Notes: generated from the sequence alone by a model not told the origin. Positions 8,949-38,783 are shown, counted from the first letter of the stretch. The stretch is DNA of 52,271 nt from Nitrospirota bacterium (GCA_016217665.1 JACRHF010000041.1:1-52271); one strand, 5' to 3'. Numbers and translations are program-made.

Positions 8949-9470
8949 TCAGTTTTGATCCTTTATTTGTTCAAGCTGTTTTATATAATTTTCAGGAAGG
9001 TGCCAATATTTAGCTCCTTCGACAATCAAACTTTTATATTCTGAATTAGGAAGAGGGGGGTTCTCCTGCTTGTTGGCAATGTATATAGTAACAAGTAAAG
9101 GCTTTTCCATATCACCTTCAGCGAACACATGGTATTCGGTTCTAAGATAAGCGTTTTCTTCCAGCTGCCGTCCGGGTCTAAATCCCTCGCTTTTGTCCAA
9201 TTGGCCGATATCACGCTCATCTATCTGGTAGACAACTCCCCAGACGTCATGCCCTTTAGTCGGAATTACATCTGCAACACCACATCCACGGTTTTTGGAT
9301 TTTCTTGTAAATTCAAGACGATGGTCATTAAATTTCGCTTTGCAAACAAATCTTGCAGAAGGACAACGCTCTATCATTTGATTCAAGTCCAGATTAGATC
9401 CATAAGCAAAGTACAACATTAATCCTTCATTAGGAAAATCAAAAAAACTGAGCCTCATCCTACTCTCCAA
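8949..9470 (-). CDS. gamma-glutamylcyclotransferase (GGCT/AIG2-like) family protein
   Basis: LYFAYGSNL motif; HDVWGVVYQIDERDIGQLDKSEGF contains the catalytic-type Glu. The true start is more likely the Met at 9419 (MLYFAYGSNL). Confidence 0.7.
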   Translation of the reverse strand: MESRMRLSFFDFPNEGLMLYFAYGSNLDLNQMIERCPSARFVCKAKFNDHRLEFTRKSKNRGCGVADVIPTKGHDVWGVVYQIDERDIGQLDKSEGFRPGRQLEENAYLRTEYHVFAEGDMEKPLLVTIYIANKQENPPLPNSEYKSLIVEGAKYWHLPENYIKQLEQIKDQN

Positions 9471-21763: not shown

Positions 21764-21764
21764 C

Positions 21765-21794
21765 CCCCCTCAGATCCTACGGAACCTGAGGGGG
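21765..21794 (+). terminator. possible terminator hairpin after the LemA-TPM-TPM operon
   Basis: CCCCCTCAG / 12-nt loop / CTGAGGGGG. There is no T-tract, so this call is weak. Confidence 0.3.
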
Positions 21795-21975
21795 ATTGGG
21801 GGGTGGGCATGAATCCTATCTTGTGAGTCCTATTATATTTACCCAAGATTAAAAGAAGATTAAGAAAAACCGTCAAATTTTGGTTAATCATCTATTTTGT
21901 GATAAGATGATCACATTCTGTCAATCCATCCAAATAATAGTTAATGAGCGAACTTGATGAAGCTACGGACATCTC

Positions 21976-24669
21976 ATGACTAAAAAAGAAGCCAAAAGAC
22001 CAAAAAAGAAGGGCCTCAGGAAAAAGATCATTATAACCATCCTGGTCATAGGGGTATTTCCTTTGGTATTTGGCATCTATCTCTCCTATCTCGAGGCAAT
22101 AGATGCACTGACAAAGAGCATAGGGACTAACTTTGCGGCCATGGCAAAGGAGACGGCAAACAAGCTGGAGATCATCCTGGAGGAGGAGTTAAGCGAGGCA
22201 ACGGCTATTTCACTGATGCCTGATATTACAGAGGTTATTGAAAGCTCAAATCTCCATTACAGGGGCCAGGGAGAAAAAAATATCCGGAAGGGAATCCAGA
22301 CACGAAGAGAGCGATGGAGCCGTGCCGCAGGAGAGGACCCTTTCATAAAAGATATCGTGAATAATAAGGCATCTCTCTATTTAAAAAGCCTTCCCCACTA
22401 TGTAGAGGAATATATCGCTATCCTCGTGATGGATGAGAGGGGCGCCTTAGTCGCGGCGACAGACAGGGGGTATGATTACTATCAGGGGGATCAGAAATGG
22501 TGGCAGGCCATCCATCAGGACCGTGAAAAGGGGGTCTTTATCAGCGATATCAACTACGATAAGGGAAAAAGACATTACCTGCTGGAGATCGCCTTTCCTG
22601 TTTACACCAAGGGAAGAGGCCATAAACAGGGAATAGGGGCCCTCCATATCCTATATAAGGCAGAGAAGATATTCACGATTGTCGGAGATGTCAGGATAGG
22701 CAGGACCGGACACGCAAACCTTGTGTCCGGGAATGGCGAAATTATTATCTGCCCCATCTTCCCTCCCAGGAGCCATAGTATCAATGAAAAGCTGATCAGG
22801 GAAATAGTGAGTCGGATCTCCGGTTGGGGCATTGCAGAGGATGATGGCCATGGCGGAAGAGATTCTATCGTTGGCTTCTACCCGCTCAGATTAAGTAATC
22901 AGTTGGTGAGGGAGAGTTTTTCCGGGAATAGCTGGTATGTGTTTATACGCCAACACCCCACGGAGACCTATGCCCCTATCCAGAGACTTCTCACCAAGGT
23001 GTCTTTCATGGTATTTTCCCTGATTGGGGTGCTGACACTTATGGGATTTTATGCATCAAAGAGGATCGTGGAACCCATCCTCCTCTTAAAAAAGGAGTCA
23101 GAACTGATCGGGGAAGGGAATCTGGATCACCGAGTGGAGGTCCGCACAGGGGATGAAATAGAGTCCCTGGCAGAAGAATTTAATTCCATGGCGGAAAGGC
23201 TTAAGACTTATCATACACAGCTTAAAACAGAGAGTTATAAATTAGAGCGTATCCTCCTTTCTGCCGGTGAAGGGATCGTGGTTGCAGATAATGAAAACAG
23301 GGTGGTGATGATAAACCCTGTGGCGGAGAATATCCTTGGGGTCACGATACAGGAGGTCAAGGGGAAATCCATATTCCCCTGTCACAAGAATCCCGAAAGG
23401 GTGCAACAGTTGCTCCAATTAGAGGGGGCCTTACCTGTTCAGATTACCATACCCGTTGGGTCGAAGATCGTGGAAATCAATGTGACCTTAATAAAATCGG
23501 ATGAAGAGATGATAGGCTCCATGATGATAATGCGGGACGTTACCCTTGTCAAATATATGGAAGAGGAATTAAGAAAACATAGTGAGCAATTAGAGAATCT
23601 CGTCTATCGGAGGACAAAGGAAATTAACGCGACGAAGAAGTATCTTGAAAATCTTCTTGAAAATGCGAATGATGTGATCTATACCCTCAACAGGGATGGA
23701 ATGTTTACCTATGTGAATCAAAAAGTAGAGATGTGGGGGTATGAGAAGGAGGAACTGGTTGGGCAACGTTTCCATGCCCTTTTAGTCACTGAGGAGGCCG
23801 TGGATAAGGGGGCTGTGGAAATGGCGGAAATAAAACCTACCAATGAGATAAGGATAAGGAATAAAAAGGGGGAGGTGAGGGACCTCCTGGTCAGGACATC
23901 CCCGCTGAAAGGGGATGAAGGGGCGGTCATCGGTGTCCTCGGGATAGCCACCGACATTACAGACAGAAAGAGGCTGGAAGAGCAGATGATGAGGACAGAA
24001 AAACTGTCGGCGATTGGCCAGCTCTCCATGGGGGTTGCCCATGAGATCAACAATCCCTTATCCGGGATGATGAACTGCGTCAGGACATTAACAGAGGAGG
24101 GGGAAGATGAATCCCTCAGGAAGAGATATCTGGTCCTTCTGGAGAAAGGGTTAGACAGGATAGAGTCTATTGTAAGGCAGCTTCTGGGATTTGCCAAGGA
24201 GTACAAGTTTGAATTTACCCCTTGTGAGATTGATGACCTGATCATGGACACCATCCGGCTGATAGATCATAAGATAAAGAGAGGGGATATCCGCCTTCAA
24301 CTGAATCTCAATTGTAAGGAAAAAAAGCATCTCCTCCCTGGAAATCATATCCAGCAGGTTATTCTGAATATCATAATCAATGCCATTCACGCCATGCCGC
24401 AAGGGGGTATCCTTACCATAGAGACTTATGAGGGCCATAAAAACCTGATTGTGAAGATCTCCGACACCGGGATTGGAATTCCCAGAGAAAACATAAGACG
24501 GATATTTGATCCCTTTTTCACCACGAAGGATGTCGGTGTAGGAACCGGCCTTGGTTTATCGTTGAGTTATGGTATCATTAAAAAACTCGGGGGTGAGATA
24601 GACGTAGAGAGTAAAGTGGGCAAGGGGTCCACATTTAAAGTGGTGATTCCCCATAAGCAGGGAGAATAA
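21976..24669 (+). CDS. sensor histidine kinase: TM, Cache-like periplasmic domain, TM, HAMP, two PAS domains, HisKA and HATPase
   Basis: H-box AHEINNPLS, N-box LNIIINAIHAM, G1 DTGIGI, G2 GTGLGLS. The PAS domains show the PAC-like ends RDVT and TDITDRK. Confidence 0.9.
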   Translation: MTKKEAKRPKKKGLRKKIIITILVIGVFPLVFGIYLSYLEAIDALTKSIGTNFAAMAKETANKLEIILEEELSEATAISLMPDITEVIESSNLHYRGQGEKNIRKGIQTRRERWSRAAGEDPFIKDIVNNKASLYLKSLPHYVEEYIAILVMDERGALVAATDRGYDYYQGDQKWWQAIHQDREKGVFISDINYDKGKRHYLLEIAFPVYTKGRGHKQGIGALHILYKAEKIFTIVGDVRIGRTGHANLVSGNGEIIICPIFPPRSHSINEKLIREIVSRISGWGIAEDDGHGGRDSIVGFYPLRLSNQLVRESFSGNSWYVFIRQHPTETYAPIQRLLTKVSFMVFSLIGVLTLMGFYASKRIVEPILLLKKESELIGEGNLDHRVEVRTGDEIESLAEEFNSMAERLKTYHTQLKTESYKLERILLSAGEGIVVADNENRVVMINPVAENILGVTIQEVKGKSIFPCHKNPERVQQLLQLEGALPVQITIPVGSKIVEINVTLIKSDEEMIGSMMIMRDVTLVKYMEEELRKHSEQLENLVYRRTKEINATKKYLENLLENANDVIYTLNRDGMFTYVNQKVEMWGYEKEELVGQRFHALLVTEEAVDKGAVEMAEIKPTNEIRIRNKKGEVRDLLVRTSPLKGDEGAVIGVLGIATDITDRKRLEEQMMRTEKLSAIGQLSMGVAHEINNPLSGMMNCVRTLTEEGEDESLRKRYLVLLEKGLDRIESIVRQLLGFAKEYKFEFTPCEIDDLIMDTIRLIDHKIKRGDIRLQLNLNCKEKKHLLPGNHIQQVILNIIINAIHAMPQGGILTIETYEGHKNLIVKISDTGIGIPRENIRRIFDPFFTTKDVGVGTGLGLSLSYGIIKKLGGEIDVESKVGKGSTFKVVIPHKQGE

Positions 24670-24677
24670 AGAAAAGA

Positions 24678-26051
24678 ATGGAAGACGGAATTTACAGGCC
24701 TGAGATCTTGCTGGTAGAAGATGATGAGATTATGCGGGTGACCGTCTCAGATCATCTGAGGAAAAAAGGGTGGACTGTGACCGTGGCAGAGGATGGGGTG
24801 ATCGGGATGGAGCAGTTGAAAAAGAAGGATTTTGACATCGTGATCTGCGATATCCGGCTGCCCAAAAAAAACGGCATGGAATTGCTCAGGGAGGCCAAAG
24901 AGACCTCATCCCAGGCTGAGTTTATTATGATGACTGCCCATGGCACCATCGGCGATGCTGTTGAGGCGATGAGGCTTGGGGCCAGAGATTACATCACAAA
25001 ACCTTTCCACGTAGATGAACTGGTCATCCGTGTTAAAAAGATCATTGAGCATCATGTTCTGCTTGCAAAGTATGAATTGCTCAAGGAGAGCGTAGAGGAA
25101 AGGTACTCTTATCAAAATATCATAGGAAGAAGCAAAAAGATGCAAGCGATTTTCAATGTGATTGAGAAGGTGAGCAGGATAGATACCAATGTGATCATCC
25201 TTGGTGAGAGCGGGACAGGTAAGGGGCTTGTCGCCAATGTAATCCACATGATGAGCAGCAGGAGAGACAGGCCCTTTGTCAAGGTGAATTGTGCTGCCCT
25301 GCCCGGGACCCTGTTGGAGTCAGAACTGTTCGGGCATGAGAAGGGGGCCTTTACAGGCGCCATCAGGAAAAAGAGCGGGAAATTTGAATTAGCCGACAGG
25401 GGCACCATATTTTTTGATGAGATAGGAGATATCCCTCCCTTTGTCCAGGCAAAGCTGCTCAGAGTTCTCCAGGAACATGAATTTGAACGGGTGGGAGGGG
25501 AAGAGACCATCAAGGTAGATGTCCGTCTCGTCTCCGCTACCAAGGAAGATTTAGAGAATCTGGTCGCCAATGGGAAGTTCAGGGAGGACCTCTATTTTCG
25601 TCTGAAGGTGATCTCAATCCATCTCCCCCCTCTGAGAGAGCGGAAAGAGGACATCCCCTTTCTGGTAGAGGAATTCCTAAAGAGGTTCAATAAAAAATTA
25701 AAGAAAAATCTTACCCTGTCCAATGAGGCCGTAAAGTGCCTGATGTCTTATGACTATCCTGGAAATGTCCGGGAGCTGGAGAATATTATAGAAAGGACAG
25801 CCGCCATGACAGACAGTGATGTCATCATGCCTAAGGATATCCTTCACTCTTTTGACAAGAATATCCGGATCTACTCTGATAAAGAAGAGGAGAATCTGAC
25901 TCTCAAAGAATTGCTGACCCGGATAGAAAGGGAACATCTGATAAAAGTCCTTGCAGAAACGGACGGGAACAAGGTAGAAGCGGCGAGGATCTTAGGGATC
26001 AGTAGAAAAAATCTTTGGGAGAAACTCAAGGTGTATCACTTGTTAAAGTAA
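24678..26051 (+). CDS. sigma54-dependent response regulator (REC, AAA+, Fis-type HTH; NtrC family)
   Basis: REC phospho-acceptor context DIVICDIRLP, Walker A GESGTGKG, sigma54-contact loop EKGAFTGA, Walker B FFDEIG, and HTH AARILGISRKNLWEKLK. Confidence 0.92.
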   Translation: MEDGIYRPEILLVEDDEIMRVTVSDHLRKKGWTVTVAEDGVIGMEQLKKKDFDIVICDIRLPKKNGMELLREAKETSSQAEFIMMTAHGTIGDAVEAMRLGARDYITKPFHVDELVIRVKKIIEHHVLLAKYELLKESVEERYSYQNIIGRSKKMQAIFNVIEKVSRIDTNVIILGESGTGKGLVANVIHMMSSRRDRPFVKVNCAALPGTLLESELFGHEKGAFTGAIRKKSGKFELADRGTIFFDEIGDIPPFVQAKLLRVLQEHEFERVGGEETIKVDVRLVSATKEDLENLVANGKFREDLYFRLKVISIHLPPLRERKEDIPFLVEEFLKRFNKKLKKNLTLSNEAVKCLMSYDYPGNVRELENIIERTAAMTDSDVIMPKDILHSFDKNIRIYSDKEEENLTLKELLTRIEREHLIKVLAETDGNKVEAARILGISRKNLWEKLKVYHLLK

Positions 26052-26057
26052 CACCGC

Positions 26058-26077
26058 CAGTTACCGCCCGGTAACTG
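26058..26077. promoter_or_regulatory. candidate enhancer (UAS) palindrome CAGTTACC-N4-GGTAACTG
   Basis: A perfect 8-bp inverted repeat centred about 106 bp upstream of the GG of the sigma54-type promoter at 26173. A near-identical palindrome lies at 29173-29190. Confidence 0.45.
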
Positions 26078-26172
26078 AGTGGTCATGCCTGTGTATCTCT
26101 TCAAATCCCTCTCATTCTTTTTTTCCTTTAAACCTTAACAGGTTACGAAGTTCTTCTTACGAATAAAACTAC

Positions 26173-26188
26173 TGGTATTCCTTTTGCT
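26173..26188 (+). promoter_or_regulatory. sigma54 (-24/-12) promoter for the cytochrome c-nirK-porin operon
   Basis: TGGTAT-TCCTT-TTGCT has the exact GG-N10-GC spacing of the TGGCAC-N5-TTGCW consensus. It lies ~53 nt upstream of the ATG at 26241, directly downstream of a sigma54 activator gene. Confidence 0.6.
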
Positions 26189-26240
26189 TAATAAAGAGTT
26201 TTGTAACTCGAATTCAATTTTACAGAAAGGAGGTGAGGTT

Positions 26241-26738
26241 ATGATCACGAAAACATGGACAAGAAGGGCATTCATAACAGCCCTGGTCGCCATCCCTTTA
26301 TTCTTCCTGATACTCCAGTATGTTGATATCACACCGGTATATTCCGCAGATGAACAGGCGTTAAAACCGAGGGTCCCTGCAGATAAACTGGCAGAAGTGC
26401 AGTCTTTAAAGAGTCCGATAGTGGCGAGCGAAAAGACCATTTCAACAGGCAAGGCCATCTTCCATGGAAAAGGGGTATGTGTTAACTGCCATGGCGAGGC
26501 AGGTAATGGGAAGGGTCCGATCGCAAACTCATTTGATCATCATCCGAGGGATTTCACGGATACGGATGATATTGGCTGGCAGAAGGCAAGGACAGATGGC
26601 GAGATATTCTGGGCCATTTCCAAGGGGACAGAATATGGCATGATTCCGTATGAGGATATGCTGAGTGAGGACGAGAGGTGGGCGCTTGTGGCCTATATCA
26701 GGAGTTTAGAAAATTCTGTAGTCGCGAATCATAAATAA
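26241..26738 (+). CDS. class I c-type cytochrome (monohaem), probable electron donor to NirK
   Basis: Signal anchor, then the haem motif CVNCH with the distal Met region [13 protein letters not shown] strong AGGAGGTG Shine-Dalgarno precedes the ATG at 26241. Confidence 0.8.
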
Positions 26739-26761
26739 GCCTTAATAAGGGAGGGTGGGTT

Positions 26762-27772
26762 ATGGCTAAGAAATATTTTTTTGGAGTGATGCTCCTGATC
26801 GGGGCAATGATTATCGGTACTCCTACGGGGAGTGATGCCGCAGATGAGGTTGCAAAACTGACGACAGCTCCTGAAGTGCCGCCGGCAATTACACGGCCTG
26901 GAGGGGCTAATGTCACTGTAGAACTGGAGACGACTGAAGTGAAAGGGCAATTGGCAGATGGCGTGGAATATACGTACTGGACATTTGGCGGAACAGTTCC
27001 AGGTCCAATGATCCGCGTTAAGGTGGGAGATAATATTACTTTCACCCTAAAGAACAGTGATGCAAGCAAAAATCCGCACTCGATAGATTTGCATGCTGTA
27101 ACAGGTCCTGGCGGCGGCGCTAAGGCCACCCTGACACTTCCGGGTGGGAAAACAGGGTTTTTCTTCAAGGCGCTGAATCCTGGTTTATATGTCTACCATT
27201 GTGCCGCTCCCCATATCCCGACCCATATTGCGAACGGGATGTACGGCCTCATCCTGGTAGATCCGGAAAAAGGTCTTCCCAAGGTAGACAAGGAATACTA
27301 TATCGTCCAGGGAGATTTCTATACGACCGGCAATACAGGTGAGAAAGGTGCGCAGGGTTTCTCTGTAGAGAAGGCAAGGGCAGAACAACCTACCTATGTT
27401 AAGTTTAATCCCATGGCTACCCCGGGTAATTTGAAGGCTAAAGTTGGGGAGAAGGTACGTCTCTATGTAGGCAATGGCGGCCCTAACCTTACATCGGCCT
27501 TTCATGTTATTGGGGAGATCTTTGACACGGTATATCAACTGGGCGCTGTAGGTTCTGACCCTGCCAAGAATGTCCAGACCACACTCATTCCACCGGGTGG
27601 TGCGGCGATTGTTGACTTCAAAGTGGATGTTCCAGGCAACTATATCCTTGTTGACCATGCCATCTTCCGGGCCATTGACAAGGGCGCTGTAGGGATCCTT
27701 GAGGTTGCAGGGCCCGATGTGCCGAATGTTTTCAAACCTCTCAAGACCGGGGGAGCTGATGCCGGGCATTAA
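26762..27772 (+). CDS. nirK: copper-containing nitrite reductase
   Basis: Type-1/type-2 Cu ligand pattern: HSIDLH (with the catalytic Asp), [18 protein letters not shown] (H-C...H...M), [10 protein letters not shown] (catalytic His) and LVDHAIF (third T2Cu His). A signal peptide is present. Confidence 0.85.
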
Positions 27773-27799
27773 TAGAGCAGGAATGTGAGGTAAAGGCAA

Positions 27800-29074
27800 A
27801 TGAAGCGAAAAAGATTATGGCTAATTCTGTTAACGATATTCGTTGTGGCAGGGTTGGTTAGTATCAGTTATGCCGAGGTGAAGTTAGGCGGAGAGCTGCG
27901 GGTACGGGGTGTTATGGTGGACAACAGTGACACGACCACTGCTGGCGCTAAGAAAGATGGAGGGTATTTTGAGCAGAGGACCCGGCTCAATGCAGATGCC
28001 TCGGTGGATGAGAATGCAAAGATCGTCATCCAGATTCAGGACAGCAGGAAGTGGGGAGAGAAAAAAGCTACTGGTGATAATACACTTGTAACTGGTCAGG
28101 ATGCCGAGGCCTTGGACCTTGCTCAGGGCTATGTGGAGATCGGAAAACTCTTCGATCAGCCGCTCTCAGTACGGTTGGGTCGCCAGGCCATGGCTTACGG
28201 CGAACACAGGCTTATCGGCACACTGGAGTGGAGCAACAATGCCAGGAGGTTTGACGCGCTGAAGTTTATCTACAAGCATGATGTCGTTGATGTGGATGTA
28301 TGGACGGCTAAGGTAGCAGAGAGTGGAGAAGACTGGGGGAACGATGATAATTTGAATGGCGTCTATGTGACTCTGAAGAGTATCCCCAAAAATGCTGTAG
28401 ATCTCTATCTGCTCCAGAAGATAGCAGGTGCTACTAACCTTAACTTCTATACTATCGGAGCCAGGGTAAAGGGTGGCGTTGAGAACGTCAACGTGGACTA
28501 TACAGCAGAGGTTGCCGTACAGACAGGTGATGCCAGCACTAATGTAGATAAAGGGGCTTCAGCCTATGCCATCAGGGCAGGTTATACAGTACCTAATGTT
28601 AAGGGATTAAGGGCAGGCGTAGAGTATGATGCCGCAACAGGGGACAAGTGTGTCACCTTTACTGGTACTACGTGTACCGACTCTGGCACTAAGAATGAGG
28701 CATTTGACAATCTCTATCCAACCAATCATTACCTCTATGGCTTTACAGATGATGTGAACTGGACCAATACGAATGCCTGGTCTCTCAATGTTAGCTTAAA
28801 GCCTATGGATAAGGTTAATCTCGCCGTTGAGTACTGGAACTATAAGACTGATCAGGAAAATTCAGCGGGTAAAGATGACAATGGAACGGAGATAAATGGG
28901 AAGCTTAATTATGAGCTGAGCAAGAATATTACATGTGAAGCGGCCTATGCGCTACGGGATGCTGGTGATTCAGCAGGACCAGCAAAAGCTTACGATAGCA
29001 GTACCTTTGGGAATATCCCGGCGGATAAAAGCGCATCCTTCGGTTATTTTTTGATTAATGTGAAGTTTAACTAA
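27800..29074 (+). CDS. outer-membrane beta-barrel porin, alginate-export-like family
   Basis: Signal peptide; LSVRLGRQAMAYGEHRLIGTLEWSNNARRFDALKF is characteristic of the family; the C-terminal residue is aromatic (KFN). Confidence 0.7.
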   Translation: MKRKRLWLILLTIFVVAGLVSISYAEVKLGGELRVRGVMVDNSDTTTAGAKKDGGYFEQRTRLNADASVDENAKIVIQIQDSRKWGEKKATGDNTLVTGQDAEALDLAQGYVEIGKLFDQPLSVRLGRQAMAYGEHRLIGTLEWSNNARRFDALKFIYKHDVVDVDVWTAKVAESGEDWGNDDNLNGVYVTLKSIPKNAVDLYLLQKIAGATNLNFYTIGARVKGGVENVNVDYTAEVAVQTGDASTNVDKGASAYAIRAGYTVPNVKGLRAGVEYDAATGDKCVTFTGTTCTDSGTKNEAFDNLYPTNHYLYGFTDDVNWTNTNAWSLNVSLKPMDKVNLAVEYWNYKTDQENSAGKDDNGTEINGKLNYELSKNITCEAAYALRDAGDSAGPAKAYDSSTFGNIPADKSASFGYFLINVKFN

Positions 29075-29133
29075 GTTGCCAAAAGACTCTACCTGGGCCT
29101 ATCTCTCATGGGTACGGTGAGCTTCTAATAGAA

Positions 29134-29158
29134 GGGGAAAGGGGCTTCCCCTTTCCCC
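29134..29158 (+). terminator. terminator-like GC hairpin after the porin gene
   Basis: GGGGAAAGGGG CTT CCCCTTTCCCC, an 11-bp stem. There is no clear T-run. Confidence 0.5.
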
Positions 29159-29172
29159 GCTTGGCACTGATC

Positions 29173-29190
29173 AGTTACCAGGCGGTAACT
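29173..29190. promoter_or_regulatory. second copy of the candidate UAS palindrome AGTTACC-N4-GGTAACT
   Basis: A 7-bp perfect inverted repeat, followed by direct GTAACTTCTT repeats at about 29185 and 29209. It is centred about 130 bp upstream of the TGGTAT element at 29310. Confidence 0.45.
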
Positions 29191-29309
29191 TCTTAAGTAA
29201 CCATACAGTAACTTCTTGCTCTATAAGAGAGATGTATTAAATGATGTACTCTTTTATTTTTCTCTTATGTATTGCCAGGTTATAAAGCTGATTTTCAATA
29301 TACATCTTT

Positions 29310-29325
29310 TGGTATCTGTCTTGAA
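29310..29325 (+). promoter_or_regulatory. possible sigma54-type promoter for the HCO-like/cyoE/sco/NOR-like operon
   Basis: TGGTAT-CTGTC-TTGAA has the same -24 hexamer as the 26173 promoter with correct spacing, but the -12 element is GA instead of GC. It lies ~61 nt upstream of the ATG at 29386. Confidence 0.35.
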
Positions 29326-29385
29326 TAAGTAATGACTACCTCGAGATCGTGATTCTAACCACAGAATGGAATAGAGGATAGATTT

Positions 29386-30810
29386 ATGATGCTAAAAGAG
29401 ATTGATGAAAGAACCGGCACTTTGTTATATGGATGGCTATTACTTGCCATCTCTTCTCTCGTATTTGCAGGGGTTTTTGCCTTTTTGATAGCCATGTCAA
29501 GGACCCCTCTGATTCAGGATTTTTTCTGGATAAAGGATTTTTTTCATAAAGGTCTTGTAGGCCATGTGATCCTGGCTTTTGTAATCTGGTTCCTCTCTTT
29601 TATGGGTGTGCTCTCGATAGTCTCTGCAGGATTAATTAGAAAAGGGAACTCCGGATTCAAGATGGGGTGGATAGGCCTTTTTAGTTCTTCAATAGGTACG
29701 TTTATGATAATAATCTCCACCCTCTCCGGATGGGGTTCTCCAAGACTTGCCAATTACATCCCTGTCTTGACCCATCCCATGTTTTATTTAGGGCTATTTC
29801 TTTTTGCTGCCGGCATATTTCTCCTTCTACTTGATATCCTACCAAATATCTTTAAGGACATTAACGAAAATGGGTCATCACTGATTGCCCATGGTATGGC
29901 CATAGCCGGGTTAACGGTCTTAATCGCCTTTATATGCTTTGGACTTGCATACTATTTTCTCCCCTCGCCGCAAATAGAAGGAGTTAATTTTGAGCTCCTC
30001 TTCTGGGGGGGGGGACATATACTTCAATTTACTAATACCATTTCGATGGTCGTTGTGTGGATTTTTTTGCTTCATTTAACCCTGGGGATTTTTCCCCTGC
30101 GGGAAGGCCTCATAAGAGTCCTTTTATGGGCCTATCTCTTATGTGTCCTTCCCGCCCCTCTTTACTTTTTCATTTATGACATCTCCACCCCGGAATATAA
30201 AAACAGCTTTACCCGTCTTATGGAATTTGGCATCGGTCCTCCAACAGGGATCATTATTATATCTATTATAGCGGCAATCATAAGACAGAGGATTCAGAAT
30301 AGAGAAAAACTCCCCTGGGGAAATCCCATGTTCTCTTCACTTGCCTTGTCTGTCTTAGTCTTTACACTGGGCGGGGTTATCTCCATGACCATAAGGGGTA
30401 GTAATGTGAAGATACCGGCCCACTATCATAGCGTAATAGGTGCAGTGACCCTTGCCTTTATGGGCATTACCTATCATCTCCTATCTTTGATAGACAGAGA
30501 GATCTATATGAAAAAGATTGGCAGGATTCAGCCTTATTTGTATGGTATGGGTGTATTAATATTTTCCCTGGGGCTCTTCTGGGCAGGTTCACACGGGGTT
30601 CCAAGAAAGACTGCCGGGGTTGCACAGAATCTTGATTCATACGGTAAGCTTGCTGGAATGGGTCTTATGGGACTCGGAGGGATTATTGCAATACTGGGAG
30701 GCGCAACCTTTGTCATTAATGCCATTTTCTCACTGTTAAAACGTAGAAAGACAGAAAATGTTGGGGCAGAAGAGGAGACTTATGGTAAAGAATATTCTGT
30801 CAATATTTAA
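29386..30810 (+). CDS. heme-copper oxidase subunit-I homologue lacking two of the three CuB histidines (paralogue A)
   Basis: 12-TM protein with the helix-II His (GLVGHVILAF), helix-VI LFWGGGHILQF and helix-X AHYHSVIG. Where B-family enzymes have HH, it has PLYFFIYDISTPEY. It is a paralogue of 44095-45492. Confidence 0.75.
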   Translation: MMLKEIDERTGTLLYGWLLLAISSLVFAGVFAFLIAMSRTPLIQDFFWIKDFFHKGLVGHVILAFVIWFLSFMGVLSIVSAGLIRKGNSGFKMGWIGLFSSSIGTFMIIISTLSGWGSPRLANYIPVLTHPMFYLGLFLFAAGIFLLLLDILPNIFKDINENGSSLIAHGMAIAGLTVLIAFICFGLAYYFLPSPQIEGVNFELLFWGGGHILQFTNTISMVVVWIFLLHLTLGIFPLREGLIRVLLWAYLLCVLPAPLYFFIYDISTPEYKNSFTRLMEFGIGPPTGIIIISIIAAIIRQRIQNREKLPWGNPMFSSLALSVLVFTLGGVISMTIRGSNVKIPAHYHSVIGAVTLAFMGITYHLLSLIDREIYMKKIGRIQPYLYGMGVLIFSLGLFWAGSHGVPRKTAGVAQNLDSYGKLAGMGLMGLGGIIAILGGATFVINAIFSLLKRRKTENVGAEEETYGKEYSVNI

Positions 30811-31639
30811 GATCAGGATAGGGATGCTGATCTCTTTCAGTGCTGTGGCAGGATATATTGTTGCTGAAAAGGGGACACCTTCTTTCCCCAGGATTTTCCT
30901 TCTTGCTGTGTTGACCCTTATGGCATCAGCCGGCGCAGGCGCTTACAATCAATACTACGACAGAGACATAGACGCGGTTATGAAAAGAACGGATAACCGC
31001 CCGTTACCATTGGGGGGAATCCGCTTAACTCATGGTGTAGCTTTTGCAGGAATCTTCCTCATCTTCCTGTCAGTTATCGGTGCCTTTTTCACTTTAAATT
31101 ACGTAGTATCACTGCATCTGTTTCTCGGTGCCTTTGTCTATGCAGTTATATACACAGTGTGGCTTAAGAGGCGAAGCTGGATCAATATAATAATCGGCGG
31201 GTTATCCGGCAGTTTTGCCGTACTTGCCGGAGGGGCGTCAGCGAACCCGGGGTTTTGTCTGCCTCCGATACTCCTTGCTGTTGTCTTATTTTTCTGGACT
31301 CCATCTCACTTCTGGAGTTTTGCTATAGTCCATAAAGAGGATTATCAAAAGGTCGGCATCCCAATGCTCCCTGTTATCCTCGATAATCATAAAAGCGCTT
31401 TATTGATACTATTAAACACCTTGTTCCTGTTTATCTCCTCACTGTTTCTTCTCTTTTTCGGCCATCTCGGTTTAATTTACGGTGTAATCGCCGTGTGTAC
31501 AGGAGTCTTTTTTATTGGAAGAAATCTTCAGCTCCTGATAAACCCAACAAAAGAAATCGCGTGGAAGAATTTTAAGGCATCTATAATCTATTTATCAATA
31601 ATCTTCATCGCTGTGATAGTAGACGTCAGTCTGAGCTAA
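30782..31639 (+). CDS. cyoE: protoheme IX farnesyltransferase (heme O synthase)
   Basis: UbiA-family motif NQYYDRDIDAVMKRTDNRPLP. A GAGGAG Shine-Dalgarno precedes the ATG at 30782. Confidence 0.88.
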   Translation: MVKNILSIFKIRIGMLISFSAVAGYIVAEKGTPSFPRIFLLAVLTLMASAGAGAYNQYYDRDIDAVMKRTDNRPLPLGGIRLTHGVAFAGIFLIFLSVIGAFFTLNYVVSLHLFLGAFVYAVIYTVWLKRRSWINIIIGGLSGSFAVLAGGASANPGFCLPPILLAVVLFFWTPSHFWSFAIVHKEDYQKVGIPMLPVILDNHKSALLILLNTLFLFISSLFLLFFGHLGLIYGVIAVCTGVFFIGRNLQLLINPTKEIAWKNFKASIIYLSIIFIAVIVDVSLS

Positions 31640-31641
31640 AG

Positions 31642-32553
31642 ATGATAAAAGGAATAAAAGGAATAAAAGGAATAATATTATCTATCCTGATCGTCTATTT
31701 TTATTTCACTACGATTACCCCTACCTTTTCCTCCGCCTTTGCCTCACAGCCTGAAGATTCAGAGGCGATCAGAGCAATGATGGCTGCTGAACAGTCAGTA
31801 GGGAAACAGATAGTGGATTATGTTTTTACAGACCAGGATGGAAACAGGTTTCATTTAAAGGATCTGTATAACAAACCTCTCATTATCAGTTTTGTCTACA
31901 CAAATTGTCCCCATACCTGTTCAACGATTACAGCAAGCCTGGCCGCTGCAGTAAAAGAAATCGAGAATCCACAACCCCCCCTTAATCCCCCTTTACTAAA
32001 GGGGGAAAGAGGGGGATTTGATGTTATGACCATAGGATTTGATTATGAGAGAGATACACCAGAGAGGATGCTGGAGTTTGGCAAGAGATTTACTAATGAC
32101 TTTAGCCACTGGAAGTTTGTAACTGCAGATAGAGATACCATCGAAAGATTCTCAAGGGATATTGGATTTTATTACACCAAAAGAGGGAATGATTTTAGTC
32201 ATTTAAATATGATCTCTATGATAGCAGGTGGGAAAGTATATCAACATATTTACGGGGTCAATATTAAGAGCAGTGATATTGTTACTCCATTAAATGAACT
32301 ATTGACAAAGAGAAGCGAAGGAAAAAGGCTGGCAAATCCTATAGGCTGGCGGGACAGGCTGATAACCATGTGTTCTTTGTACGATGAGTCTACTCAGACT
32401 TACAGGATCAATTACTACTATATAATCAGATTCTTTTTAGAACTTATGTCTCTCGCTGCTATCTTTTTCTTCATGTGGAAGAGGGAGGTCTATTCCCTTT
32501 ATACCCGTGTGATGATGACAATGGTAAGGATAAAAAGGAGAGGATATGCGTAA
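31642..32553 (+). CDS. SCO1/SenC copper chaperone with an in-frame repeat insertion and a C-terminal TM extension
   Basis: Thioredoxin-like CPHTC motif and conserved His (FSHLN). The insert is PQPPLNPPLLKGERGGFD. The N-terminus carries IKGIKGIKG from a 9-bp x3 tandem repeat (31645-31671). Confidence 0.8.
   Translation: MIKGIKGIKGIILSILIVYFYFTTITPTFSSAFASQPEDSEAIRAMMAAEQSVGKQIVDYVFTDQDGNRFHLKDLYNKPLIISFVYTNCPHTCSTITASLAAAVKEIENPQPPLNPPLLKGERGGFDVMTIGFDYERDTPERMLEFGKRFTNDFSHWKFVTADRDTIERFSRDIGFYYTKRGNDFSHLNMISMIAGGKVYQHIYGVNIKSSDIVTPLNELLTKRSEGKRLANPIGWRDRLITMCSLYDESTQTYRINYYYIIRFFLELMSLAAIFFFMWKREVYSLYTRVMMTMVRIKRRGYA
31973..32019. repeat. G/C-run palindromic element inside the SCO1 gene
   Basis: AACCCCCCCTTAATCCCCCTTTACTAAAGGGGGAAAGAGGGGGATTT, read in the same frame (PLNPPLLKGE) as the lipB copy. 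Confidence 0.85.
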
Positions 32554-32585
32554 TTAAAAACCCTTTGGAAGGAGGTGAAAAGATA

Positions 32586-32750
32586 ATGCCTGAAGAAAAA
32601 AAGATTTCCGGGTGGCAGGTTTTAATGGATGATATTTCTATGCTGTTTCTACTGGGGGTGGTAATTCCAACAGTGCTTTATGTTATATGGGGAGTTATGG
32701 AGTATGCATTTGCTCCGACATTTTCTCTTCCACCAGGTCCCACACCCTAA
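32586..32750 (+). CDS. small single-TM protein in the position of ba3-type subunit IIa
   Basis: 54 aa, MPEEKKISGWQVLMDDISMLFLLGVVIPTVLYVIWGV. An AGGAGGTG Shine-Dalgarno lies 7 nt upstream. The longer track ORF (from 32475) overlaps the end of SCO1. Confidence 0.55.
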   Translation: MPEEKKISGWQVLMDDISMLFLLGVVIPTVLYVIWGVMEYAFAPTFSLPPGPTP

Positions 32751-32781
32751 TCATTTAATTTAATCTAAATGGAGGAAAATT

Positions 32782-33306
32782 ATGCCGATAACATCTCCTG
32801 AAAAATACTGGTGGAAACCAGCAGATAAGGAAGAAAAAATATGGATTTCCATCGCATTATTATGGTGCCTTGTGCTGACGATCATGATGCCCCTTATGCA
32901 TCTAATAGGTACTCAGAACCCTTCAGTCAATCCGATGAAGATCAGACCACAGGATTACAGGACAGTGAGTGAGGCATTTATAGAAAAATATAAGGTTGGA
33001 GAAGAGCAGGGTATTCCTGTTGTTGAACCACCTGATGGCGCAGATGTGTACCTTAGGGCGCAGATGTGGACATGGACTCCTATACTGAAACTCAAGAAGG
33101 GTGTAAATTATAAGTTCCATATATCGTCAGTGGACCTGATGCATGGATTTTCACTGATGCCGCTTGTTATGAATTTTCAGGTAGTGCCAGGCCATGACAA
33201 TATATTAAACATGACGCCTACATCAGCCGGGACATTCCATATCATCTGTAATGAGTTTTGTGGGATAGGCCACCATACAATGGTAGGTAAAATAATCGTG
33301 AGTTAG
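32782..33306 (+). CDS. B-family-type HCO subunit II (single TM plus cupredoxin with a CuA site)
   Basis: VDLMHGF and CNEFCGIGHHTM give the H...C-x3-C-x3-H-x2-M CuA ligands. Size and layout resemble ba3 subunit II. Confidence 0.85.
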   Translation: MPITSPEKYWWKPADKEEKIWISIALLWCLVLTIMMPLMHLIGTQNPSVNPMKIRPQDYRTVSEAFIEKYKVGEEQGIPVVEPPDGADVYLRAQMWTWTPILKLKKGVNYKFHISSVDLMHGFSLMPLVMNFQVVPGHDNILNMTPTSAGTFHIICNEFCGIGHHTMVGKIIVS

Positions 33307-33369
33307 GGGAGGAACTGCCTCTTTCTGTGCAGCATTCTCTAACACTTTTGGAAAAGGGGGGTAGAAAAG

Positions 33370-34905
33370 ATGGCAAGTGAATTAGTGTTTAGAACCTGTC
33401 CCATTACAGGGAAAAAGGTTTATGCAGTCACTCAAAACCTGATATGGATAAATGCAGTAACAGCAGTAGTGTTTATCCTTGTAGGCGGGATAATGGCATT
33501 TCTGGTTGGGATGACACGCTGGCCTGCAGTCCATCTGCTGCCTGCTGACCTGTTTTATAGATTCCTGACAGCCCATGGACTGAATATGCTCATATTCTGG
33601 ATCATATTCTTTGAGATAGCAGGTCTATATTTCGGATCTTCAGTTTTGCTTAATTCAAGACTTGCGGCGCCAAAGGTTGCATGGCTGGCATATATCCTGA
33701 TGCTTGTTGGGGCAGTTCTGGTTGATATCATGGTATTCACCGGTAAGGCAGACGTAATGTTCAGCTCTTATGTCCCGTTGCAGGCTGATCCGAAATACTA
33801 CCTTGGGATTATCCTTTTTGCTGTCGGCGCCCTGATAGGATGCGGCATCTTTTTTGGGACATTGGCAATAGCCAAGGCAGAAAAGACCTATGAGGGGTCT
33901 GTTCCTCTGGTCACTTTTGGTTTAGCTGCGGCTGCCATCATTGCTGTTTTCACCCTCGCATGTGGCGCCATAATTTATATACCGACATTCCTGTGGTCTC
34001 TTGGGCTGATAACAAACTTAGACCCGGGTGTATACAGGTTAATCTTCTGGGGAATGGGCCATTCGTCTCAACAGATAAACGTAACAGCAATGGTCTCTAT
34101 ATGGTATCTCTTAGGAGCGTTGACTGTTGGGGCAAAGCCTGTTAATGAGAAGATATGCAGAAGCGCATTTTTCCTTTATATCTTGTTTATCAATCTTGCT
34201 TCAGAGCATCACCTTCTGACAGACCCTACTTTAAGTCCGTACCATAAGATGGTAAATACCTCTTACTTCATGTATCTGGCGGTGCTTGCCAGTATGATCC
34301 ATGCCCTGGCAATCCCAATGATGGTTGAGGTTGCCCAGCGGAAGAAGGGATTTACAAAAGGACTATTTGAATGGCTCACAAAGGCGCCATGGGGCGAACC
34401 TGGTTTTCCAGCCATGATCTTTTCCCTCTTCATATTCGGTTTTATAGGTGGTATCACAGGTGTGGTCTATGGTACAGAACAGCTCTCCATAAAGAGTCAT
34501 AACACATGGGCTATGACTGGTCATTTCCACGCTACTGTTGTAGGTGGAACCACCCTTGCCTTTATGGGCCTTACCTATTATGTGATTCCCCTCATCTTCA
34601 GGCGGGAGCTTATCGGGAAAAAACTGGCTGTCGTCCAGCCGTATATCTTTGGCATTGGAATAATTCTGATTGCATTAGGTATGGGAGGCGCTGGAACACT
34701 GGGTTCACCAAGAAGACACTGGGATATTACCTTTGCTCAGTCAGTTATTCCATTCTCATTTGACCCTGCTGTAATATTTTTTACAACAATAGCTGCCATA
34801 GGTGTATTAACCGCAGTGACAGGCGGGGCCATGTATGTTGGTGTGTCTGTGCTTTCAGTTTTCTTTGGCAGGAAGATGGCCGCCAATGAGGCCAAACTAT
34901 TATAG
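33370..34905 (+). CDS. B-family-like HCO subunit I lacking the His-Tyr cross-link tyrosine (candidate NO reductase or atypical oxidase)
   Basis: Helix VI reads FWGMGHSSQQINV (Gln where ba3 has Tyr). The CuB pair is retained (ASEHHLLTDPTLSPYHKM). Helix X reads TGHFHATVVGG. Confidence 0.8.
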   Translation: MASELVFRTCPITGKKVYAVTQNLIWINAVTAVVFILVGGIMAFLVGMTRWPAVHLLPADLFYRFLTAHGLNMLIFWIIFFEIAGLYFGSSVLLNSRLAAPKVAWLAYILMLVGAVLVDIMVFTGKADVMFSSYVPLQADPKYYLGIILFAVGALIGCGIFFGTLAIAKAEKTYEGSVPLVTFGLAAAAIIAVFTLACGAIIYIPTFLWSLGLITNLDPGVYRLIFWGMGHSSQQINVTAMVSIWYLLGALTVGAKPVNEKICRSAFFLYILFINLASEHHLLTDPTLSPYHKMVNTSYFMYLAVLASMIHALAIPMMVEVAQRKKGFTKGLFEWLTKAPWGEPGFPAMIFSLFIFGFIGGITGVVYGTEQLSIKSHNTWAMTGHFHATVVGGTTLAFMGLTYYVIPLIFRRELIGKKLAVVQPYIFGIGIILIALGMGGAGTLGSPRRHWDITFAQSVIPFSFDPAVIFFTTIAAIGVLTAVTGGAMYVGVSVLSVFFGRKMAANEAKLL

Positions 34906-35350: not shown

Positions 35351-37465
35351 ATGGGTTCTTTAGGAAGAAGAATCGTACATACTATTGATGGTTGGACAGA
35401 TCGTATCATCCCGCCTAAATATAATCCATTATACTGGCTGGGCACACTATGTTTCGTTTCCCTGATGCTGATACTTATAACCGGTAGTTACCTGTTTTTA
35501 TTTTATAAGACCGGCGCCCCTTACGAATCAGTTCAGTACCTTACTGTCAACCAATGGTATATTGGCGGCTATTTGCGGAGTATACACCGCTATGCCTCTG
35601 ACGGGTTAATTTTGTTCATGACGCTTCACCTCGTGCGTGAGTTTCTTCTCGGCAGATACCGTCAGTGGAGATGGTTATCCTGGGTTTCAGGTGCTGCCCT
35701 CCTGGTTGCCTGTCTTATCCTTGGAATTATGGGATACTGGCTGGTTTGGGATGGACGGGCCCAGTTAATTGCCCAGAAGACCGCCCAATTACTTAATGAT
35801 ATCCCAATATTTGTTGAGCCACCTTCACGCTCATTTTTAAGTGGTGATACCATCAGCAAGATGTTGTTCTTTGTCCTCCTTCTGGGACATATAGGCATAT
35901 CACTGATAGGTATCAGCGCTTTAGTATTTATACATACATCGAGAAATGCCAGGCCAGTGCTTAAACCTCCGCGCGCAATTTCTGTTGCACTAGTGATTGT
36001 GCTCTCTGCATTATCCTTCATTGTCCCGGCTACTAATGCCCCAATGGCTGATCTGGCTAAGCTGCCAATTAATATTCCTTTTGATTGGTTCTTTTTATTT
36101 GTGTATCCATTAACCTCTGCCCTGTCGAAGCGGGCCTTCTGGTTCACATCCGCCAGCGGCGCCTTATTACTTTTTACAGCGCCATGGATTGGAAGATTCA
36201 GAAAGCCTCCGGCAGCACAGGTAATTCTGGAGAAGTGTGTCGGTTGTGAGCAATGCAATAAAGACTGTCCCTATGAAGCCATCAGAATGGTCCCCAGAAA
36301 AGACGGGAGGCCATATCTCCTGCAGGCAGAGGTGCTGGTTAACAGGTGTGCAAGTTGCGGTATCTGTGTCGGCTCATGTGATTCTAAAGCGGCTGACCTT
36401 CCTGACAGGACATTGGAGCAAACAGAAAAGGAGATAACCAGACTTTTAAATCTGCCGCAAAAGCAGGGTAGTGGGCCAAAGATACTGGGTCTGGTATGTG
36501 AAAAGAACATCAGGCTGGATAAGTTTATAAATGCAGAAAACAAAAGTCTTAAAGGGATGCCAAATGTTTTCGTTATTACATTCGTCTGTTCCGGTATGAT
36601 TCATCACTCCACGATTGAATATGCCCTTGCATCAGGTGCAGAGGGTGTATTTGTAAGCGGCTGTCAGATAGAGGAATGTTACTACCGTGAAGGTTCCAGG
36701 TGGTCGCATGCAAGGTTGATGGGAGAGAGGGCGCCTGTTGTCTTACCATTGAAAGGCACAACAAGCGACTACTCACGAATCCGTTCATACCGGCTATCTC
36801 CTCTCCGGGCCAAAGACCTCATAAATAAGATAGGTCTCTTTCAAAAAGAACTTGAGCAGAAAACTTCTGTCAGGGCCTACAGGCCTATAGAGACTATGAT
36901 ACCCGGGGAAGGGACATACAAGAAAGTGGCGGCACTTTGCATTATTCCACTGCTTTTGCTGCCTGCCTTCCTCATCTCCTTTCTGTCCACAAAACCAACA
37001 TACCCTTTCTATAGCAAAGACAACGCGTTAATAAAATTTACCTTCCAGCATTCTGGTAAACAGGAGGATTGTAAGGAAATAACTGAGAAAGAAACAGAGA
37101 GTAAACTTAAACATATGAGGAAGACAAACTCCCCTTATTCCCGCATGAGGATGGATTGTGCGAGAAAGAGGCTTCCCAGTTATGTAGAGTTAGATTTAGA
37201 CAGGAGAAATATATTATCCAGGGTCTATCACCCTACAGGCCTGAGCGGTGACGGGTCCACATTTGCCTATGAGGAAATACCTATAGCCCCAGGGACACAT
37301 GAAGTCACGGTCAGAATGAGGGATACCAAAGATGTCAGCAATTTTGACTATAACTTTGAAAAGAAAATAAACCTTGAAGCAGGACAAGTCGCTGTCATTG
37401 ATTTTGACAGTGATAACAATAAATTTCACATCATGGGGCAGAGTGAGGAGGAAAAAGGTGAATAA
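35351..37465 (+). CDS. fusion protein: dihaem cytochrome b6-like membrane domain, 2x[4Fe-4S] ferredoxin domain, MvhD/FlpD-like domain, an extra TM and a ~170-aa C-terminal domain
   Basis: Haem His pairs IHRYASDGLILFMTLH and GHIGISLIGISALVFIH. A PEWY-like PFDWFFLFVYP. CVGCEQCNKDCP and CASCGICVGSCD. FlpD-like VCSGMIHHSTIEYALASGAEGVFVSGCQIEECYYREGS. Confidence 0.8.
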   Translation: MGSLGRRIVHTIDGWTDRIIPPKYNPLYWLGTLCFVSLMLILITGSYLFLFYKTGAPYESVQYLTVNQWYIGGYLRSIHRYASDGLILFMTLHLVREFLLGRYRQWRWLSWVSGAALLVACLILGIMGYWLVWDGRAQLIAQKTAQLLNDIPIFVEPPSRSFLSGDTISKMLFFVLLLGHIGISLIGISALVFIHTSRNARPVLKPPRAISVALVIVLSALSFIVPATNAPMADLAKLPINIPFDWFFLFVYPLTSALSKRAFWFTSASGALLLFTAPWIGRFRKPPAAQVILEKCVGCEQCNKDCPYEAIRMVPRKDGRPYLLQAEVLVNRCASCGICVGSCDSKAADLPDRTLEQTEKEITRLLNLPQKQGSGPKILGLVCEKNIRLDKFINAENKSLKGMPNVFVITFVCSGMIHHSTIEYALASGAEGVFVSGCQIEECYYREGSRWSHARLMGERAPVVLPLKGTTSDYSRIRSYRLSPLRAKDLINKIGLFQKELEQKTSVRAYRPIETMIPGEGTYKKVAALCIIPLLLLPAFLISFLSTKPTYPFYSKDNALIKFTFQHSGKQEDCKEITEKETESKLKHMRKTNSPYSRMRMDCARKRLPSYVELDLDRRNILSRVYHPTGLSGDGSTFAYEEIPIAPGTHEVTVRMRDTKDVSNFDYNFEKKINLEAGQVAVIDFDSDNNKFHIMGQSEEEKGE

Positions 37466-38771: not shown

Positions 38772-38783
38772 AATCTACTTAGA

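Follow-up and report, generated by a model that had tools for sequence, protein, structure and literature searches.

A putative NtrC-type two-component switch for nirK and an eNOR-type cluster in an uncultured Nitrospirota bacterium

Classically, nirK and nor genes are seen as controlled by factors of the FNR/CRP type (NnrR/DNR), by NsrR and by NorR. The locus discussed here, carried on a 52,271-nt stretch of DNA (hereafter the window) from the metagenome-assembled genome (MAG) of a Nitrospirota bacterium, encodes a sensor histidine kinase and an NtrC-type sigma-54 activator, followed by a cytochrome c-nirK-porin operon and an eNOR-type cluster. Two described systems provide the background. 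In Desulfovibrio vulgaris, NrfS-NrfR (DVU0621/0622) is a sigma-54-dependent two-component activator of nrfHA under nitrite stress and has 16-bp upstream sites (PMC6456213, PMC3333781, PMC4641369). In Pseudomonas, the operator of CbrB has been dissected into TGTTAC (forward) and GTAACA (reverse) subsites, arranged as one forward and two reverse, upstream of sigma-54 promoters (PMC6296734). The publication defining eNOR is silent on its regulation, the stem 'regulat' being absent from its text (PMC11214002). For nirK, eNOR or nar in Nitrospirota, no literature on control by sigma-54 or by a two-component system was found.

It is proposed that the kinase and the activator form a two-component switch which, via two half-site arrays termed upstream activating sequences (UAS1 and UAS2) and two promoters (P1 and P2), co-induces the nirK operon and the eNOR cluster. 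On the strength of sequence comparison, a probability of about 0.78 is assigned to this reading. The MAG (G000) is a 1.71 Mb assembly and is 77%-complete; the relatives compared with it are groundwater Nitrospirota MAGs, of which G003 is 'Nitrospirae bacterium nzgw272'.

Regulator, half-site arrays and promoters

An earlier note on this DNA had described two palindromes, CAGTTACC-GCCC-GGTAACTG at 26058-26077 and AGTTACC-AGGC-GGTAACT at 29173-29190, followed by the elements TGGTAT-N5-TTGCT (26173-26188) and TGGTAT-N5-TTGAA (29310-29325). All four were found at these positions in the window, with the arrangement GG-N10-GC in the first element and GG-N10-GA in the second. Both palindromes sit inside larger arrays of three to four half-sites each. 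UAS1 (26048-26077) contains GTAAC at 26048, GTTAC at 26060 and GTAAC at 26071, and its first half-site overlaps the stop codon of the activator gene. UAS2 (29173-29212) contains GTTAC at 29174 followed by GTAAC at 29185, 29197 and 29208. When the register is counted from the first G of the -24 GG to the start of each half-site, with F denoting GTTAC and R denoting GTAAC, the half-sites of region 1 lie at -126 (GTAAC), -114 (GTTAC) and -103 (GTAAC), and those of region 2 at -137 (GTTAC) and at -126, -114 and -103 (all GTAAC). The register is identical in the two regions. Both arrays are thereby repeated or dyad sites some 80-200 bp upstream of a -24/-12 element and conserved with the regulator, which is the usual mark of an enhancer.

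P1 (26173-26188, + strand), with GG at 26174, GC at 26186 and a predicted start at ~26198-26201, agrees in sequence and spacing with a sigma-54 promoter of the -24/-12 type. P2 (29310-29325, + strand; predicted start ~29335-29338) is a candidate of the same type and has the correct GG, TTG and spacing, with a non-canonical -12 in which A stands in place of C. Sigma-70-like sites were sought in both palindrome/promoter intergenic regions and none was found. Between UAS1 and P1 lies an AT-rich spacer (26078-26172; 64% AT), which carries a T7 tract at 26118 and the conserved block CCTTTAAACCTTAACAGGTTA and is a candidate bending region. A T-tract ~55 bp and a CAGGTTA block ~30 bp upstream of the GG are common to both regions. 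No convincing match to the IHF consensus was seen between the UAS and the promoter; the MAG contains four genes of the IHF/HU family.

These elements are exact and non-random. The pattern GTTACC-N4-GGTAAC, for which the earlier note had suggested a genome search, has two matches in the window and two in the whole assembly, both of them in this locus, against an arithmetic expectation of ~0.1. Arrays of at least three GTTAC/GTAAC half-sites at 11-12 bp pitch occur at these two places only in the assembly (mean 0.1 in 20 shuffles). In addition, P1 and P2 are the only exact matches to TGGTAT-N5-TTG in the window.

That note had also placed an NtrC-family activator and a Cache/PAS kinase directly upstream (21976-26051), and the Pfam domains bear this out. 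The kinase (21976-24669, + strand) has the architecture dCache_1-HAMP-two PAS-HisKA-HATPase_c, and 8 nt separate the end of its gene from that of the activator (24678-26051, + strand), which is of the receiver (REC)-AAA+(GAFTGA)-HTH_8 type. Pfam matches of the activator are Response_reg, Sigma54_activat, AAA_lid_14 and HTH_8, and its Fis-type helix-turn-helix (HTH) ends in ILGISRKNLWEKLK. GAFTGA at residue 223, Walker A (GESGTGKG), Walker B (DEIGD) and the receiver Asp in DIRLP are all intact. With a phospho-acceptor Asp, an AAA+ domain, GAFTGA, HTH_8 and an adjacent kinase, the protein has the features of an NtrC-type response-regulator bacterial enhancer-binding protein (bEBP) and, judged by its motifs, is competent. 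No half-sites were seen upstream of the kinase gene, and the kinase-activator operon is, therefore, presumably expressed independently of its own activator.

Conservation and specificity of the regulator-promoter unit

True orthologues of the activator, found in genomes and metagenomes at 73-94% identity, all keep the elements in register; in each of the nine related contigs found, the array and the -24/-12 unit stand in exact register with free spacers. Orthologues of the kinase (69-91%) are present in G003, G001 and L133, and a kinase of the same architecture adjoins the activator orthologue in L228. The P1-type unit, R-F-R at -126/-114/-103 with TGGTA(T/C)-N5-TTGC, is found in the window, L130, L131, L132, G003, L226, L227 and L228. 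The P2-type unit, F-R-R(-R) at -137/-126/-114/(-103) with the promoter consensus TGG(T/C)A(T/C)-N5-TTG(A/T), is found in the window, L130, L225, G003, L226 and L228. The full UAS2 register (-137/-126/-114/-103) is conserved in L130, L225, L226 and L228, and in part in G003. Among the orthologues, the palindrome half-sites are invariant and the spacer between them is free (GCCC, GCCT, ATCT, ATCC, TATCGA and others), and the N5 promoter spacers also vary freely. When region 1 of the window is aligned with that of G003, 20/20 motif positions are identical as against 58% of the other intergenic positions.

The surrounding genes are less constant. L130 and L132, the closest metagenomic relatives, do not have the cytochrome c gene and keep the same UAS and P1. 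L226 has the order P1-nirK-porin-P2-eNOR, and in L227 the activator is followed by P1 directly before eNOR. In L228 the order is kinase-activator-P1-small open reading frame (ORF)-P2-eNOR, with no nirK; its activator is 73% identical and has an identical recognition helix. Comparison of these layouts indicates that the gene order has been rearranged while the elements persist, the link between regulator and promoter being kept. The uniqueness of the elements in the genome, their fixed register and their co-inheritance with the regulator lineage are, in this sense, read from sequence and comparison.

Some details of these relatives may be recorded separately. In L130 (1481-1713) and L132 (1834-2069), the UAS and P1 lead directly to nirK via an unrelated 5' leader. 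The sole gene between P1 and UAS2/P2 in L228 (3117-3356) is a 79-aa ORF rich in Ser, Lys and Glu, and ORFs of 41 aa and ~50 aa recur inside the eNOR clusters of L226-L228. In G003 (L045, G003:C31, ~1578-2580), UAS2 directly adjoins an ORF whose end resembles that of an IS256-family transposase; the leftmost half-site of UAS2 is ATTAC and not GTTAC, and the porin-proximal hairpin region lies ~1 kb further off. The edge of this enhancer has apparently been the target of an insertion.

Few positions of sigma-54 promoters are as conserved as the -12 C. In P1-type promoters this base is always C; in the eNOR-type promoters it is A in five loci, T in one and C in none (n=6). The N5 spacer and flanks of the P2-type promoters diverge, as in TGGTACCCATTTTGA of L228 and TGGCATCTGTTTTGT of L226. 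Because A or T is kept in six loci while the spacer and flanks diverge, the missing C is, by this comparison, a conserved property of the eNOR promoter and not an accident of this genome. The earlier note had feared that the -12 GA at 29323 is inactive; this worry is eased by the conservation of a non-C base in six loci, and the activity itself stays a prediction. The -12 region helps to hold the closed complex locked. It may, therefore, be speculated that a C-less -12 tunes the eNOR promoter differently from the nirK promoter.

The specificity of the half-sites was seen in two controls. GTTAC-N6-GTAAC was found in none of ~150 paralogous bEBP loci (40-50% identity, ~1.8 Mb in total). G003 has a second cytochrome c-nirK copy (L224, G003:C88:11444-15430; 77% NirK identity). 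This copy is not linked to the regulator, has neither a GTTAC array nor a -24/-12 element, and is preceded by a sigma-70-like TTGCAA...TG-TATAAT promoter. As an observation in its own right, G003 holds two nitrite reductase copies, differently regulated, in one genome. The proposal that the palindrome is the enhancer of this activator thus gains support from the register, the nine contigs and the absence at the paralogous loci. The same comparison favours a dedicated kinase/activator switch for nitrite reduction and handling of nitric oxide (NO), with co-induction as the expected outcome.

Related systems were found beyond the orthologues. Sister genera of this family possess a kinase with the same domain layout (38%, full length) and an activator (~49%), after which come GTTAC half-sites and a canonical sigma-54 promoter. 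G004 (L036), G007 (L040) and G009 (L038) carry two GTTAC-N6-GTAAC palindromes, placed at -194/-183 and -96/-85 relative to TGGCA(C/T)-N5-TTGC. G005, G006, G008 and G036 have a distal palindrome or half-sites, proximal GTTAC repeats in the same orientation, and a TGGCAT-N5-TTGC promoter. Loci L037, L039, L041 and L042 are likewise of this nar type. Downstream lie narK, genes for a universal stress protein (USP) and a small periplasmic protein, and narG/narH/narJ; NarG and NarH exceed their equivalog cut-offs. narG was not found in G000, G001 and G003, and nirK was not found in G004, G006 and G007. As narG and nirK were found in complementary sets among the genomes searched, the type of regulator tracks the reductase that is present.

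The complete genome G022 (L035, G022:C1:1106000-1124000) has a relative of the activator with 51% identity and palindromes at exactly -150/-139 from two promoters, which lie at positions 9174 and 14982 of the locus. As in P1 and P2, a TTGC promoter is paired with a TTGA promoter. The former precedes a PstS-family binding protein, two kinases and a methyl-accepting chemotaxis protein (MCP); the latter, TGGCAT-N5-TTGA, precedes an ArrA-like molybdoenzyme exported by the twin-arginine (TAT) route. The recognition helix ISRK(N/T/S)LWEK is common to all the motif-associated regulators, and the paralogues differ in it. Separately, a different and large clade of Nitrospirota bEBPs with the helix ISRKVLWKK (L054, L059, L062, L064, L070, L075, L136 and others) has TGGCAT-N5-TTGC ~103-125 bp downstream of its own stop codon. 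The succession of activator and then target may be a general layout in this phylum.

Opposing observations and rival explanations

Several results weigh against the switch. The first concerns sigma-54 itself, the earlier note having held that the lack of an rpoN gene would count decisively against it. Profile searches with PF04552 and PF04963 found rpoN neither in this MAG nor in the second one of the genus. On the other side, rpoN is present in 29/31 relatives and in 24/24 of the high-quality ones. In G003 (L220, G003:C57) and G004 (L221, G004:C6), it sits in a block with genes for fumarate hydratase subunits, lptB, rapZ, ubiX and pilMNOPQ. For the ~15 ORFs of this block, no orthologues were found in this MAG, the best matches being paralogues at 24-34%, and the missing neighbourhood amounts to at least 15 kb. 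Since the entire syntenic block is missing along with rpoN, the absence is read as a gap of assembly or binning, and the loss of the gene was rejected as the best reading. The second MAG of the genus, where rpoN is absent as well, probably lacks the block too. The objection is mitigated by this and not removed. With seven full bEBP genes in the MAG, intergenic promoter matches and rpoN in the relatives, sigma-54 is plausibly in use in this organism.

The second is a matter of counts. The canonical pattern TGG(C/T)A(C/T)-N5-TTGC(A/T) has 10 matches in the genome as against 1-11 in shuffles, which is no significant enrichment. As this count does not exceed the shuffles, only the intergenic location is informative: 7/10 matches lie outside ORFs of at least 100 aa. 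Of the TTGA-type matches, 6/7 lie inside long ORFs, and P2 at 29310 is the sole intergenic one in the genome. Similarly, the 10-base palindrome has 1-3 matches in each whole genome of the relatives, not above a reversed-pattern control, so that the signal lies in placement and not in number.

The third group concerns the regulator lineage. Regulators of G011 (L034), G020 (L033) and G028 (L032), 63-65% identical, share the helix, and no GTTAC site was found in 8-14 kb around them, even with one mismatch. These regulators belong to another family and sit after a cyclic-nucleotide (cNMP)-binding protein and two kinases. A quick maximum-likelihood (ML) tree places the nirK-type, nar-type and G022 regulators in one supported clade, which also includes 18 motif-less paralogues. 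An exclusive clade of the motif-bearing regulators was not obtained and, therefore, a single origin is not claimed.

Finally, P2 is without the near-invariant C of the -12 GC, and the footprint of region 2 is weak, with 27/29 motif positions identical as against 77% of the others, the close relatives being too similar. It may thus be argued that only P1 works as a sigma-54 promoter, that 29310-29325 is inactive, and that expression of eNOR comes from P1 by read-through or from a promoter that escaped recognition. The conservation of region 2 among close relatives, little above background, agrees with this, and read-through is plausible as the hairpin after the porin gene has no U-tract. However, the -24 TGG and the -12 TTG(A/T) are kept in six loci despite the changes in N5 and flanks, each with its own UAS in register. 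The support for P2 comes mainly from L226 and L228, and in L228 P2 is present with no upstream nirK operon as a source of read-through. G022 offers an independent palindrome and TTGA promoter, whose register matches that of the TTGC promoter there. TTGT stands at -12 in a sigma-54 promoter predicted for D. vulgaris (quoted in PMC6456213), and the search of the P2 region gave no sigma-70-like site. An inactive P2 is, for these reasons, considered unlikely.

Promoters of the -24/-12 class obligatorily require a bEBP, and the half-sites always lie 85-195 bp upstream of a -24/-12 element. This speaks against another proposal, that the arrays are operators of some other factor, such as one of the OmpR/PhoB type that reads direct repeats, with the adjacent activator acting elsewhere. 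In its favour, three of the four half-sites of UAS2 are direct repeats at 11-12 bp pitch, some proximal sites of the nar type are F-F direct repeats, and the D. vulgaris PhoB box is AGGTTACAGCATAGTTAC (quoted in PMC6456213). Yet at least 15 loci show the sites together with this regulator lineage, in many cases beginning no more than some tens of bp from its stop codon, and the unlinked nirK copy of G003 has no half-sites. CbrB, moreover, is itself an NtrC-type bEBP that reads GTTAC subsites in mixed orientation (PMC6296734). A foreign factor is judged improbable.

The weakest alternative, that the palindromes are RNA hairpins only, serving as terminators or 3'-end stabilisers of the upstream operons, has in its favour that palindrome 1, 7 nt after the activator stop codon, folds with its flanks into a 13-bp stem (-20.6 kcal/mol, z -3.7), which by alignment is also possible in L130-L132, and is very improbable, as there is no U-tract after either palindrome and no terminator call on the + strand (the tail of palindrome 1, AGTGGTCATGCC, has no T-run), palindrome 2 is a weak hairpin (z -1.2) closely preceded by a separate strong one (29134-29158), the spacers of the nar-type palindromes are non-complementary and these palindromes do not fold (z 0.0), and what is conserved is a 5-nt word in both orientations at a fixed register to -24/-12, with no compensatory changes of the arms seen. 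The caution in the earlier note that the palindromes might act only as terminators holds to the extent of the hairpin potential of palindrome 1, which has the stem of an intrinsic terminator and not its U-tract. A second role of palindrome 1 as the 3'-end hairpin of the kinase-activator transcript is possible.

Target operons, proposed mechanism and known systems

The genes flanking the arrays are, by domain and TIGRFAM matches, as had been described (cytochrome c-nirK-porin and an HCO-like/cyoE/sco/NOR-like set). Operon 1 (26241-29074, + strand) comprises cytochrome c (26241-26738), NirK (26762-27772), which scores above the cut-off of TIGR02376, and an Alginate_exp-type porin (27800-29074). 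Operon 2 (29386-34905, + strand) comprises, by Pfam, a COX1-like paralogue (29386-30810), UbiA/heme O synthase (30758-31639), SCO (31642-32553), COX2 (32782-33306) and COX1 (33370-34905), a gene set that recurs in L225-L228. From its domain content and a published description (PMC11214002), partly re-tested here, it is identified as a probable eNOR-type NO-reductase cluster, and it possibly extends into the cytochrome b-FeS/NuoF genes at 35351-40274.

After the porin gene, a GC-rich hairpin, GGGGAAAGGGG-CTT-CCCCTTTCCCC (29134-29158, + strand), folds at -22.1 kcal/mol. It received a terminator-like call on the minus strand only and has no T-run on the + strand; it may mark the 3'-end of operon 1 or terminate it in part. 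Because this hairpin between the operons has no U-tract, some transcription may run on from operon 1 into operon 2. Hairpins of G/C runs just 3' of stop codons were seen in the window at 21764-21805 (CCCCCCTCAG...CTGAGGGGG) and again at 29134-29158.

From these features we infer the binding of the protein, the dependence on sigma-54, the positions of the transcription starts and the co-induction, and the following course may be proposed. Phosphorylation of the receiver would follow a signal perceived by the dCache domain in the periplasm or the PAS domains in the cytoplasm; nitrite, NO, nitrate and oxygen/redox state are candidates for this signal. The phosphorylated activator would then oligomerise on the half-sites, which are one helical turn apart, in arrays centred ~130-155 bp upstream of the predicted starts. 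The AT-rich, T-tract spacer would loop, either through intrinsic bending or with the aid of one of the four IHF/HU-family proteins. The activator would remodel sigma-54 RNA polymerase at P1 (TGGTAT-N5-TTGC) and P2 (TGGTAT-N5-TTGA), with ATP-dependent opening. P1 would serve cytochrome c-nirK-porin and P2 the eNOR-type cluster, and nitrite reduction and the removal of NO would thus be induced together.

A wider idea is possible and, on balance, doubtful. Nitrospirota may possess a family of Cache-kinase/bEBP pairs with one operator word, GTTAC/GTAAC, re-wired to the oxyanion reductase of each genus (nar, nirK with eNOR, or arr). In the present locus, the dCache domain might sense nitrite or nitrate directly, and the C-less -12 might be a design feature that gives the NO reductase a different threshold, for example a leakier or differently activator-dependent one, so that NO never accumulates.

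The proposed switch offers a specific model of how uncultured groundwater Nitrospirota may regulate nitrite and NO reduction, with an operator word, two promoter types in register and a candidate sensor. Sister genera apply a related system to nitrate reductase. The model would help to predict when these organisms produce nitrous oxide (N2O) in aquifers. A conserved sigma-54-type promoter without the -12 C is also a natural variant that is handy for studying the sigma-54 -12 'lock'.

Compared with known systems, the enteric NtrB-NtrC/glnAp2 pair is similar in having a REC-AAA+(GAFTGA)-Fis-type HTH regulator encoded beside its kinase, and several adjacent sites 100-150 bp ahead of a GG-N10-GC promoter, an arrangement that points to oligomerisation and looping. 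It differs in three respects. The NtrC operator is of the TGCACC-N5-GGTGCA type, whereas GTTAC/GTAAC half-sites are found here; NtrB is cytoplasmic and tied to the PII pathway, whereas the sensor here has a periplasmic dCache with PAS domains; and the targets of NtrC belong to nitrogen assimilation, whereas respiratory nirK and eNOR follow here. The activator scores 442.7 against the NCBIfam ntrC model, below its cut-off of 558.6.

NrfS-NrfR is functionally the closest known system, sharing sigma-54 two-component control of a nitrite reductase operon. Its target is, however, the cytochrome c nitrite reductase nrfHA (ammonifying/detoxifying) and not copper NirK with eNOR, and its operator resembles that of LurR, GTCCGCTTTTTCAGAC (GTCC...N...AGAC), in place of GTTAC-N6-GTAAC. 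By its operator and targets, the activator does not fit an orthologue of NrfR (DVU0621). NorR of E. coli and Ralstonia eutropha is likewise a sigma-54 activator dedicated to NO-reducing or detoxifying enzymes, but it is a one-component protein with an NO-sensing GAF domain (non-haem iron), unlike the phospho-receiver and separate kinase found here. Membership of the NorR family was rejected: the N-terminus is a receiver, and the NCBIfam NorR score of 337.9, below the cut-off of 476, comes from residues 137-448 (AAA+/HTH) only.

The layout of the G022 locus, with a PstS-family protein, kinases, a bEBP and an ArrA-like target, presumably resembles AioX-AioS-AioR/ArxXSR. This likeness is one of layout and concerns the 51%-identical relative in G022, not the window. 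The best precedent for the operator is CbrA-CbrB, whose NtrC-family regulator has the same half-site core and mixed orientation; it differs in subsite spacing, flanking bases, targets (carbon-catabolite small RNAs and others), phylum and sensor. Taken with these systems, the locus can be described as an ordinary NtrC-type enhancer/sigma-54 switch with new targets and a defined operator, and as a well-supported computational prediction.

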